A stretch of DNA of 64,000 nt, from NCBI GenBank assembly GCA_947628695.1, contig CANRAV010000007.1, positions 19,549-83,548 on the forward strand. The letters run 5' to 3'. The notes beneath the pieces are model-generated. The model saw nothing but the letters and a program-made list of their open reading frames with translations. It was not told the DNA's origin and made no database searches. Position 1 is the first letter of the stretch. Every line of letters begins with the position of its first letter. Source of the DNA: an uncultured Clostridia bacterium. Lineage in GTDB: Bacteria > Bacillota > Clostridia > Oscillospirales > CAG-382. This document shows, piece after piece, positions 37,246 through 45,968 of the stretch. Position numbers and translations under genes: made by a program.

Positions 37246-37731
37246 ATGGGATATGGAGCGTATTTATCGATAAAACGGCGAAAGAAAATGAAATTTGCCT
37301 TTATTGGCTCGCTCTCTTTGATGTCGCTGTCAATTGCCTTCATGCCGATAGCCAGCGAGTACCGTGGAGACAGCATGCTGCCCACCATACTAACGGGAAC
37401 GGCATTTTGGGTGGGGTTAATAGGTACGGTATTGATTGCGATATGGATCAATCGACGCCGAAAGAAAAGCACGCGTTTCAATGAATTGTATCCAAACGCG
37501 AAACAGCTTGGCGTTGTCCGTTTTTTTCAGAACAAGCCGGCGACGGTTGTGGACATTGCAATGTTTGCGGCTCTTTTGGGTTTGATAATTACCAAATTGA
37601 CTGTAGATCGGATTATCATCCCATTTGTATTTTTAGCTTTATTTGTTTTTCTGTTTGGTATGCACTGTATGCTAAACGGAGTTTGCTATAAATATCTAAA
37701 CTATAGGACAGGGAGAGGTAAAGAATTATGA
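37246..37731 (+). CDS. Small polytopic membrane protein (about 4 TM)
   Basis: A hydrophobic ORF with a GAGGAA RBS. Its stop overlaps the start of the giant gene (ATGA). Confidence 0.6.
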   Translation: MGYGAYLSIKRRKKMKFAFIGSLSLMSLSIAFMPIASEYRGDSMLPTILTGTAFWVGLIGTVLIAIWINRRRKKSTRFNELYPNAKQLGVVRFFQNKPATVVDIAMFAALLGLIITKLTVDRIIIPFVFLALFVFLFGMHCMLNGVCYKYLNYRTGRGKEL

Positions 37732-43700: not shown

Positions 43701-45968
43701 GGCTTCCATAACGGGAATGTTAAGGTGGATTTGCATGTCATCGATCCGAAGTACACCGGGCAGAGCGCAAGCGCAGCAGGGCATTATTCCGGACTTAATG
43801 AAATCACCTACCGTATTTACACGACGGATATGGGCGCGGATGTTCAGGAAACAGGCACTTTGCTTGAGCTTGGAGCTCAAACGAATGGCGCCGTGTTTGA
43901 CGGCGACCGCTTGGTCAGCTCGTGGTCCGGAAGCATTACGATTGACGCGGCTGTGTTTAACAGCAATAACACGATCGTTGAAATTACGGCCACCGACAAC
44001 GCCGGCAATACAAGGGTTACCGCGACCAAGGCCGGAGACATTCAAATCGATGTGACCGCTCCGGAAATCAATGTTAGCTACAACAATAACACAGCCGACA
44101 GCAATTTTTTCTTTAATGAAGACAGAACGGCTACAGTTGTTGTGACGGAGCGCAACTTTGCCCCGGAGGATGTCAAGGTGACAATCACTAACACTGACGG
44201 CGTGATCCCTTCACTGTCCGAGTGGAGGCAAATCTCTGCCGGAACCGGGAACGGAGACGGCACCGCTTGGGAAGCAACCGTCACATACAGCGCAGACGGT
44301 GATTACACGTTTGACATTACCTATACAGACCTCGCCGACAATCTTATGAGCGGGGTAGGCTACGGGGAAAGTGTTGTGCCGACCGAGTTTACGATCGATA
44401 AAACACTGCCGACAATCTCGGTAAGCTACAGCAACAATGATGCGGCGAACGAAAAATACTTCAAAGCACCCCGAACGGCTACGGTTACAATCAACGAACA
44501 TAACTTTGATGTGAACCGCGTGACGTTTACAAGAACAGCAGCTCTGGACGGAGCGGCGATTGATCTGCCAAATGAATCCTGGGAGCATAACGGCGATGTG
44601 CATACGGCAACCATCCCGTACACGGCTGACGGCGATTACACATTTGATGTTACAATGACGGATCTCGCAGGCAACCGGAGCGAGGCTGCAAACTACGGGG
44701 ACTCTGTTGCGGCGAATGACTTTACGGTTGATCAAACCCGTGACAACGGCGGTGCATCCGTTATAGGCGGCGTTGAGGACGGACAAGCTTATTCCGGCAA
44801 TGTGGTTCCGTCGATCAACTTCACGGATGTCAACTACAGCAATTATGAAATTCACCTTTATCGTACCAGAAAAGATCAGATTCATGTCGATGTTACTGAT
44901 GAGAAGAATATTCGCTCCCTGATTACAGAGAGCGAGCAGAACATCAGCGGTGAACTTAATATCTTCGCCAAGAACACAAGTGGAAAATATAGTGTCGAGG
45001 ACGACGGTATCTACACGCTGGAGATCACTGCCTACGATATGGCCGGCAACGAACATCCCGAGACTGTAACCTTCACTGTAAACCGTTTCGGCTCCGTGTA
45101 TGTGTATGACGCCTATCTGATTTCCTTGATTCAGGAAGGCGGCGCTTATGTGCAGGGACTTACCGGTGATCTGATTATTACAGAGTATAACGCCACCAGA
45201 CTTGTCAATGACTCCCTGAACATTGAAATTACGCTTGACGGCCGTCCCATTGAGGCCAAGTATGTCGCTGACCCTGTTCCGAACGCAAATGTCGATGTTG
45301 GGCAAAGCGGATGGTTCCAGTATCAGTATACCGTAAGCAAAGATAACTTCAAAGCCGACGGTATGTACCGCATAACCCTCTCCTCCGAAGATGAGGCAGC
45401 CAATACGCCTGAAAGCAATCCGAACAACTCAACGGACAAAGACGGAAATGCAATAGTCGATACGATGCAGTTCCGCGTTGACAGTACAGCTCCGGAAATA
45501 ACAAGCATCGTCGGTCTGGAGAACAGGATCATCAATGGGCAAAAAGTAGACGTTCGATATTCTGTATATGATGCGATTGGCTTGAAGTCCATCACAGTGT
45601 ATTTGAACGGCAAGGCTCAAGATCCGATTACCGAGTTCGACGATATAAACAACTACTCCGGCACATTTACGGTAAGCGAAAGCTCCGACGCACAAAAGGT
45701 TCGCATACTCGTCGAGGATAAGGCCGGAAACACCATTGACACCGATGATTTCGGCAAGGAAGACGCTGACGGAAACGTTATCGTGCCGATGCCTGCTTAC
45801 TCCTTTAACAGCACCGTAACGGTATCTACGAACTTCTTCGTTCGTTGGTATGCGAATAAGCCTCTGTTCTGGGGTTCAATCGGCGGTACTGTCGGCATGG
45901 CAGCAGTCATTTGGATTCTCATCGTTCTGATTAAAAAGAAAAAGAAGAAGAGCAGTGAGAAAAAATAA
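37728..45968 (+). CDS. Giant (2,746 aa) Ig-like-repeat surface protein with a signal peptide and a C-terminal TM anchor
   Basis: - An N-terminal signal peptide is present.
- Four ~85-aa B-repeat-like units follow.
- At least 10 repeats then carry the signature D(K/T)xAPxhxVxYDNN...KYY...DR(T/V)ATIxIxExNF.
- The C-terminus has a hydrophobic helix and a [11 protein letters not shown] tail, with no LPxTG. Confidence 0.85.
   Translation: [2746 protein letters not shown]

Follow-up and report, generated by a model that had tools for sequence, protein, structure and literature searches.

Introduction

The described systems closest to the locus considered here come from a survey of type VII secretion systems (T7SS) that described subtypes c to j (Garrett, Higginson & Palmer, 2024, Microlife; PMC11217815). 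Three of these subtypes, T7SSd, e and j, have large proteins, TsdI, TseI and TsjI, which carry an N-terminal Sec signal, a C-terminal transmembrane (TM) helix and immunoglobulin-like (Ig-like) domains that were seen only by structure, and such TsxI proteins were proposed to span the envelope as EsaA does (PMC11217815). They are encoded with the kinase TsxD, the PPM phosphatase TsxF, the DUF6382-FHA protein TsxJ and the single-TM proteins TsxH/K (PMC11217815). Here we analyze a giant protein of this kind from an uncultured Clostridia bacterium (Oscillospirales, CAG-382), encoded in a 64,000-nucleotide stretch of DNA that we call the window (GenBank assembly GCA_947628695.1, contig CANRAV010000007.1, positions 19,549 to 83,548 of the forward strand). 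We find that the giant closes a conserved and portable gene cassette consisting of a DUF6382-FHA protein, a PP2C phosphatase, a Hanks kinase, a single-TM protein with an acidic tail, often a four-TM protein, and the giant itself. Clostridial copies of it adjoin either the core genes of a T7SS (for a second DUF6382-FHA protein, a TadZ-like ATPase, YukD and EssC) or the operon of a Tad (type IVc) pilus.

Another subtype, T7SSf, has a core of WXG100, a YukD-like protein, an FHA-bearing ATPase, a PPM phosphatase, a DUF6382-FHA protein and the TadZ-like ATPase TsfV, and was described without a kinase and without an “I” protein (PMC11217815). By analogy, the Esr pathway of Actinomycetes is the closest tested counterpart of the cassette. 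EsrA of Schaalia, a filament with 14 Ig-like repeats that is exported by Sec, is required for an FHA protein to be phosphorylated on Thr in a kinase-dependent way when an epibiont triggers the pathway; esx genes lie beside 40% of Esr loci, the copy linked to Esx exerts post-translational control over secretion, and Esr is reported to be all but restricted to Actinomycetes (Wang et al., 2026; 10.64898/2026.09.08.750141). The same logic of envelope sensor, Hanks kinase, PP2C and FHA is found in the Pseudomonas H1 type VI secretion system (H1-T6SS; TagQRST-PpkA-PppA-Fha1) and the Agrobacterium T6SS, although these pathways serve another secretion machine, use other sensor proteins and have no giant Ig fibre. 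The Thr-phosphorylation logic of T6SS, a post-translational activation of contact-dependent secretion, is itself cited in the T7SS survey (PMC11217815).

Comparison of the Locus With Described Systems

The locus comprises the following genes, with the basis of each assignment in brackets.

32348..33472, +: J1, DUF6382, an acidic linker and FHA; a TsxJ-type cassette gene (Pfam)
33487..34146, +: Zn-ribbon membrane protein, accessory (Pfam Zn_Ribbon_1; hydrophobic C-terminal half)
34052..34921, +: F, PP2C/PPM phosphatase, cassette gene (Pfam PP2C_2)
34933..36657, +: D, Hanks kinase, cassette gene; single TM helix at residues 275-303 and a 270-aa extracellular helical domain (Pfam Pkinase, 170 bits; hydropathy)
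36660..37160, +: p166, N-terminal single TM helix and disordered acidic tail; a TsxH/K-type cassette gene (hydropathy, sequence)
37246..37731, +: p161, about four TM helices, its stop overlapping the start of the giant (hydropathy, sequence)
37728..45968, +: giant open reading frame (ORF), 2,746 aa, a TsxI-type, Sec-exported, C-terminally anchored Ig-repeat protein (ORF/translation, Pfam, NCBIfam)
46104..47024, +: J2, second DUF6382-FHA protein, of the T7SS core block (Pfam)
47040..48095, +: V, TadZ/CpaE-like ParA-family ATPase (Pfam AAA_31)
48106..52882, +: YukD-like protein and EssC ATPase, T7SS core (Pfam YukD; TIGR03928, 1,152 bits)

By architecture the giant is of the TsxI kind (TsdI/TseI/TsjI), sharing the Sec signal, the one C-terminal TM helix and multiple Ig-like domains, and the ATPase, kinase, phosphatase, DUF6382-FHA and single-TM genes of TsxI loci are all present in the window (Pfam, NCBIfam, hydropathy). 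Unlike those loci, the window also encodes a 4-TM protein and a TadZ-like ATPase. The core parts of T7SSf are all present too, yet so are the kinase and the giant, so that the locus falls outside T7SSf as defined. Over 444 conserved residues, the window EssC is most similar to TsfC (55.6% identity), followed by TsiC (50.3%), EssC (49.1%), TseC (45.4%), TsjC (41.4%) and TsdC (38.1%), values that are approximate and partial because the comparison sequences were obtained by optical character recognition of Fig. S2 of PMC11217815. WXG100/YwqH-like genes follow EssC in related loci. An ATPase that leans towards T7SSf, in a core with the T7SSf parts and together with a kinase and a giant, thus makes a combination that is absent from the published scheme (PMC11217815).

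The Esr pathway shares with the window locus an Ig-like, Sec-exported filament, a Ser/Thr kinase, a phosphatase and an FHA output protein; the FHA protein has the same layout in both (N-domain, disordered region, C-terminal FHA), and the sensing end is divergent in sequence in Esr as in the giant. Unlike EsrA, the giant has a TM anchor of its own, the alternative partner of its cassette is the Tad pilus, and it belongs to another phylum.

EsaA/YueB of T7SSb resembles the giant as a large extracellular protein of a firmicute T7SS locus that is thought to reach through the wall. EsaA is polytopic, with TM helices at both ends and a helical stalk, whereas the giant is all-beta with a single signal peptide and a single TM helix, and has no EsaA family match in Pfam or NCBIfam. 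Topology and fold therefore rule out an EsaA homologue, and the Sec signal and membrane anchor rule out a T7SS substrate.

A Conserved Cassette Attached to Either of Two Machines

The giant family is large: of the candidates scored, more than 3,000 proteins reach E<=1e-3. Our census drew on the best 80 of at least 500 matches, mostly metagenome-assembled genomes (MAGs). Through the family alignment, 79 loci were fetched with 10-kb flanks and combined with seven obtained earlier to give 86, and all of their ORFs were clustered. Cassette genes were counted in the 63 non-duplicate loci that had four or more genes upstream, a gene being scored as present when it lay within seven genes upstream of the giant. 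By this measure the kinase stood just upstream of the giant in 61 of the 63 loci, and PP2C, p166/p161 and J (DUF6382-FHA) were found upstream in 59, 52 and 51, respectively. ORF clustering placed the p166 cluster in 54 loci and the p161 cluster in 30.

Two loci break the cassette rule: L042 has J-F-D-p166 downstream of the giant, and L060 has no cassette gene within 8-10 kb on either side. A gene that adjoins the giant in three loci (L049, 12719-14383; also L002 and L057) may encode another FHA-bearing membrane partner of the cassette.

What lies beyond the giant is far less constant. Linkage to EssC was judged on the 53 non-duplicate loci whose downstream flanks are informative: in 24 of them the giant is followed by J2-V-YukD-EssC, and EssC is absent from the other 29, each with at least 7 kb of downstream sequence. 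Whole-genome searches of 22 genomes with EssC-less loci found EssC above the curated cut-off in three, always on another contig; one more had a weak EssC-like gene and 18 had an FtsK-like match alone. All three EssC-linked control genomes scored in the same search.

In the EssC-less loci, the cassette is preceded by genes for a prepilin peptidase (A24), for a protein with WG repeats and for TadG-like proteins (DUF5702). In at least 10 of the 22 EssC-less genomes, a gene for a CpaF-like ATPase is found 4.5-21 kb upstream, on the same strand and with contiguity verified. Tad markers occur in 19 loci, none of which carries EssC, and at least 19 of the EssC-less loci are operons for Tad pili; in L089/L034 and in genome G164 a complete Tad operon leads into the cassette. 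One Ruminococcus MAG has the gene order TadZ-like, CpaF, TadB, TadC, TadE-like, TadG/DUF5702, LRR, c11, A24, WG-repeat, J, PP2C, kinase, p166 and giant. The same cassette therefore sits on Tad operons without any EssC, an arrangement invisible to an EssC-seeded survey (PMC11217815).

Two features of the Tad-linked loci stand apart from these counts. A 430-aa WG-repeat protein (Pfam WG_beta_rep) is encoded directly upstream of J in 14 Tad-linked loci and in none of the EssC-linked ones (examples: L072, 3543-4856; G164:C34, 12307-13539), and is possibly an additional sensor component. In Mobilisporobacter senegalensis (L086, G016:C4, 2495-10040, minus strand), repeated gene pairs lie between the Tad genes and the cassette, with six ORFs of ~250 aa, three of which have an 86-aa ORF before them, and two DUF5702/TadG-like genes (1,375 and 940 aa) alongside; the arrangement resembles an expanded array of pseudopilin/pilin-like genes. 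Cultured, non-pathogenic carriers of the giant include M. senegalensis DSM 26537, which is Tad-linked, Clostridium fungisolvens and C. folliculivorans, which are EssC-linked, and Hominisplanchenecus murintestinalis DSM 111139.

Among 151 genomes sampled without bias from the window’s own order, the giant was present in two (the window genome and G164) and EssC in eight, and both occurred together in the window genome alone, so that seven of the eight EssC-bearing genomes have no giant. G164, which is 100% complete, has no EssC, and its giant ends a Tad pilus operon with the same cassette. The window’s own assembly (87% complete) holds one giant, one EssC and no Tad genes. The cassette is thus independent of the type of machine beside it.

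A maximum-likelihood tree of the conserved region of the giant (42 rows) bears on the history of this association. EssC-linked and Tad-linked giants are intermixed on it, the window giant and its sister L001 nest among Tad-linked proteins, and the well-supported branches need at least 6-7 partner switches. The tree thus indicates that the cassette has changed machine repeatedly.

Anatomy and Fold of the Giant

The giant is a Sec-exported type I membrane protein, a strongly acidic Ig-like fibre (459 D+E against 233 K+R) with one C-terminal helix. Its reading frame (37728..45968, +) is uninterrupted over 2,746 codons. The ATG at 37728-37730 shares bases with the TGA (37729-37731) of the ORF at 37246..37731, giving ATGA, and a Shine-Dalgarno sequence, GGGAGAGG, lies at 37711-37718, 5' of the start. 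With starts called mechanically, this stop/start overlap is kept in 28 of the 29 related loci in which the 4-TM gene lies directly upstream. The regions of the protein are as follows.

37728..37832, +: predicted Sec-type signal peptide, residues 1-35, AxA site ALA/A (by-eye sequence reading)
38142..39155, +: four InlB-B-repeat-like units, residues 139-476, within the fast-evolving distal third (pairwise identity, Pfam Flg_new_2)
40146..43304, +: threefold super-repeat, residues 807-1859, period ~354 aa, three Ig-like domains per copy (segment self-BLAST, AlphaFold2, Foldseek)
43305..44717, +: most conserved region, residues 1860-2330, four Ig-like domains (identity to 30 homologues, AlphaFold2, Foldseek)
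45819..45968, +: conserved juxtamembrane motif, TM helix (~residues 2713-2735), poly-Lys cytoplasmic tail and stop codon (sequence, conservation)

The first 35 residues (MRHGKNN...VFTALA/A) show n-, h- and AxA regions. The B-repeat units span residues 139-222, 223-307, 308-396 and 397-476, with pairwise identities of 21-30%, and the fourth is matched by Pfam Flg_new_2 (a divergent InlB B-repeat). The longer repeats were located by self-BLAST of 120-aa segments, as self-BLAST of the whole protein gave the identity match alone. Copies of the super-repeat start at about 807, 1161 and 1513 and are 37-52% identical (E down to 1e-39); each is built of modules of ~115-120 aa, and kindred modules continue to about residue 2330. 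The motif FGFYKAPV occurs at 1187 and 1537, and DR.ATI occurs seven times in the giant. Beyond Flg_new_2, the protein matches Pfam Big_3_4, Big_13, Big_3_2 and Big_3_3 and an NCBIfam OmpL47-type domain.

AlphaFold2 models built on the family alignment are confident by the predicted local distance difference test (pLDDT): residues 1155-1515, corresponding to one super-repeat, form three beta-sandwich domains in 361 aa (pLDDT 88.2), and residues 1860-2330 form four in 471 aa (pLDDT 90.9). The 832 modelled residues thus hold seven beta-sandwich domains and are all-beta. From these densities, the whole giant would contain about 22-24 Ig-like domains and would measure ~85-100 nm if extended. Foldseek searches of the PDB returned generic Ig-like arrays alone, the bacterial matches including the adhesins SiiE, MpIBP and FdeC and the GhpA grappling hook; SiiE and FdeC were among the multi-Ig matches for the super-repeat model (residues 1155-1515). 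No enzyme-like or channel-like fold was seen in either model or its Foldseek matches, and a profile search of PDB sequences gave a weak match to SiiE alone (E 2e-4).

SiiE, MpIBP and FdeC, like Bap-type adhesins, are long surface fibres of tandem Ig-like domains, and are the best bacterial structural matches of the giant. Giant Ig adhesins are exported by type I secretion or autotransport, or are sortase-anchored, and are not known to lie in kinase/FHA cassettes. The giant differs from them in its Sec export and TM-helix anchor. No LPx[TSA]G, NPxTG or LAxTG motif was found in the whole giant sequence, and the lack of LPxTG rules out a sortase-anchored adhesin.

Conservation is uneven along the fibre. 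Mean identity to 30 homologues is 19-32% over residues 1-700, rises to 50-62% over residues 1700-2300 and is 45% in the anchor region; relative to the closest homologue, residues 151-900 are 50-60% identical and most of the remainder 75-90%. As judged from these alignments, the distal tip is variable and the membrane-proximal half conserved, a gradient that fits a binding tip carried on a conserved transmission part. At the C terminus, a single hydrophobic stretch (~2713-2735) is followed by KKKKKK. Among 81 giants, columns of the juxtamembrane/TM motif are 70-90% or more conserved. In alignment A1, V2699 is invariant, and N2710, L2713, G2716, I2718 and G2720 are at least 90% conserved. Such conservation exceeds the needs of a plain anchor. 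When a degenerate DNA pattern for the anchor motif NKPLxxGxIGG was searched over genome contigs, many matches appeared in Eggerthellaceae/Coriobacteriaceae (L095-L170), none of them similar to the giant; these matches, in dozens of Coriobacteriia genomes, presumably reflect some conserved gene with the same short motif, unrelated to the giant, or chance.

Much of this anatomy had been anticipated by an initial, sequence-only reading of the window. The ATGA coupling to the 4-TM gene, the signal peptide with its four B-repeat-like units, the higher-order repeat with its two quoted motifs and the TM helix with a poly-Lys tail in place of LPxTG are all present as described, and the surface-exposed, C-terminally anchored topology was right. 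The fibre is as long as that reading expected, to the extent that its length can be projected from the models, and it does lie between the kinase and YukD/EssC. Structure prediction of individual modules, suggested there as a check, returned Ig-like beta-sandwiches.

Possible Functions of the Giant

Given its constant company, we sought the role that best accommodates both the fibre and the cassette. The explanation we prefer, which we hold to have about an even chance of being right, is that the giant is the extracellular arm (a contact sensor or adhesin) of a portable Thr-phosphorylation cassette that gates the adjacent surface machine; sensing, signal relay and gating are the parts that we infer. 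Under this model, the variable distal third would bind or sense a target beyond the wall, be it another cell, a surface or an epibiont, and engagement would be relayed, by the conserved domains near the membrane and then by the membrane segment, to the kinase and the small TM partners. Acidic T-x-L-L tails are present in J1, p166 and the Zn-ribbon protein. Thr phosphorylation of the acidic tails could then be read by the FHA proteins, and this readout would switch on the adjacent ATPase-driven machine, here EssC.

Several points weigh against this proposal. The cytoplasmic tail of the giant has no threonine and no obvious signalling domain, so any relay must pass via membrane partners. An adhesin that is co-expressed but sends no signal would fit the gene linkage just as well, and the linkage counts come from the best 80 of at least 500 matches, most of them MAGs. 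The literature searched contains no experiment on any TsxI-type protein, nor any later paper on TsdI, TseI or TsjI. Unlike EsrA, the giant has no beta-propeller, and MoxR, vWA and transglutaminase genes are missing from the locus (Pfam; giant and 20 neighbouring ORFs); the likeness to Esr is at most an analogy, and the clostridial cassette is no member of that system.

The non-signalling adhesin just mentioned would be passive: the fibre would hold the cell to its target so that the contact-dependent machine next door can act, with no link to the kinase. A fold like that of the giant Ig-repeat adhesins SiiE, FdeC and MpIBP, the variable distal region and the featureless cytoplasmic tail would all suit such a protein, as would the contact-related nature of both partner machines (PMC11217815). 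A passive adhesin, however, has no need for an invariant last place in a kinase/phosphatase/FHA cassette (61 of 63 loci), for start-stop coupling to the 4-TM gene or for a conserved juxtamembrane/TM motif, and we consider this account unlikely, though a serious contender. It is more doubtful still that the giant is an EsaA-like part of the T7SS, whether an envelope-spanning stalk or conduit for substrates or a target-recognition device. The idea draws on the position of the giant directly upstream of J2-V-YukD-EssC in the window and 24 related loci, with no terminator-like site between giant and J2, and on a structural gap at the locus, since no EsaA, EssA or EssB family was detected there in Pfam/NCBIfam scans of the window proteins; a role of this sort was also proposed for TsdI (PMC11217815). 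EssC is missing, however, from about half of the orthologous loci, and most such genomes have none anywhere. EssC-linked giants also nest among Tad-linked ones on the tree, seven of the eight EssC genomes of the order sample have no giant, and a ~90-nm, single-helix, all-beta fibre is unlike a channel. We would be most surprised if the fibre were instead a shared scaffold that organizes a passage or landmark through thick peptidoglycan or capsule for Tad pili and T7SS substrates in monoderms. Such a scaffold would account for the linkage to two otherwise unrelated envelope machines, for the TadZ-like positioning ATPase common to both contexts and for the conserved membrane-proximal half. Against it, the fibre would be several times longer than the wall is thick, the fast-evolving distal third is unexpected, and no SLH, LysM or CWB wall-binding domain is found among the Pfam matches of the giant.

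These results also revise what the sequence-only reading had made of the protein’s function. It had proposed examining co-conservation with EssC and took orthologues lying mostly away from T7SS genes as a sign against its view; the outcome is divided, with EssC beside the giant in 24 of 53 loci and absent from 29. Of the suggested contact or adhesion role in T7SS toxin delivery, the surface-exposed, contact-related component remains plausible. A role specific to T7SS toxin delivery, or as a T7SS conduit, is unlikely given the EssC-less loci (29 of 53) and genomes (18 of 22), the Tad operon of G164 and the all-beta, one-TM topology. The comparison with an EsaA-like stalk is weakened by that same topology, so unlike the polytopic, helical EsaA, and by the half of loci without EssC, and it was not new, as it matches the published speculation on TsdI/TseI/TsjI (PMC11217815).

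Neighbouring Genes and Genomic Setting

Among the accessory genes of the locus, the Zn-ribbon gene is rare (cluster c14, in five loci), and the true start of phosphatase F probably lies further downstream than 34052. J2 is invariably found with V-B-C in EssC-linked loci. Relatives of V in Tad-linked loci (~26% identity, one case aligned) have a TadZ-like receiver domain and precede CpaF-TadB-TadC. Downstream of EssC are small helical proteins and an LXG-like protein. The 622-aa protein encoded after EssC (53688-55556) has relatives at the same position in L024, L046 and L058 and no match in Pfam or NCBIfam scans, and is probably an LXG-like effector.

The T7SS locus looks like a horizontally acquired island, because of its low G+C, the adjoining recombinase and a same-genus genome that has neither giant nor EssC. 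G+C drops from 52-57% to 38-49% over the whole T7SS region (window 26000-62000), and a tyrosine recombinase gene (30886-32124) lies directly upstream of J1, as it does in seven related loci. DNA comparison with the same-genus genome gave no island borders, as only 116 bases aligned, at 72%. At the low-GC edge (27883-28203) lies a gene for a HepT-like ribonuclease, the toxin of a HepT/MntA-type pair, which adjoins genes for a Sel1-repeat protein, a methyltransferase and an RNase T-like exonuclease.

Implications

A TsxI-type protein was already known as a predicted T7SS part, but the constant partner of the giant is the kinase/phosphatase/FHA cassette, which in other gut Clostridia stands on Tad pilus operons without T7SS genes. 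Kinase, phosphatase, FHA, small-TM and giant “I” proteins were part of the definition of T7SSd, e and j. Since these parts travel as one cassette that also serves Tad pili without EssC, our results suggest that they are regulatory or sensory accessories and that the secretion channel is built of something else, so that which component forms it in systems that have no EsaA, EssA or EssB becomes a question anew. Why Tad and T7SS genes are found together, left as a question of shared regulation by Garrett et al. (PMC11217815), is offered a concrete answer by the cassette.

We tentatively extend the analogy, in a form that we rate as possible but less likely than not: the cassette may be a clostridial counterpart of Esr threat sensing, of independent or distantly related origin. 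A ~90-nm antenna would detect, with its fast-evolving tip, a surface, a phage, an epibiont or a competitor and, through its conserved membrane segment and the 1-TM and 4-TM partners, would switch the Hanks kinase, and phosphothreonine read by the DUF6382-FHA protein would license the T7SS exporter or the Tad pilus. If so, the “core components” of T7SSd, e and j would be a machine-independent sensory module. Taken with Esr, such an arrangement suggests, by analogy, that a long Ig-like filament joined to a Thr-phosphorylation relay may be a general way in which monoderm bacteria couple events beyond the wall to their surface machines.

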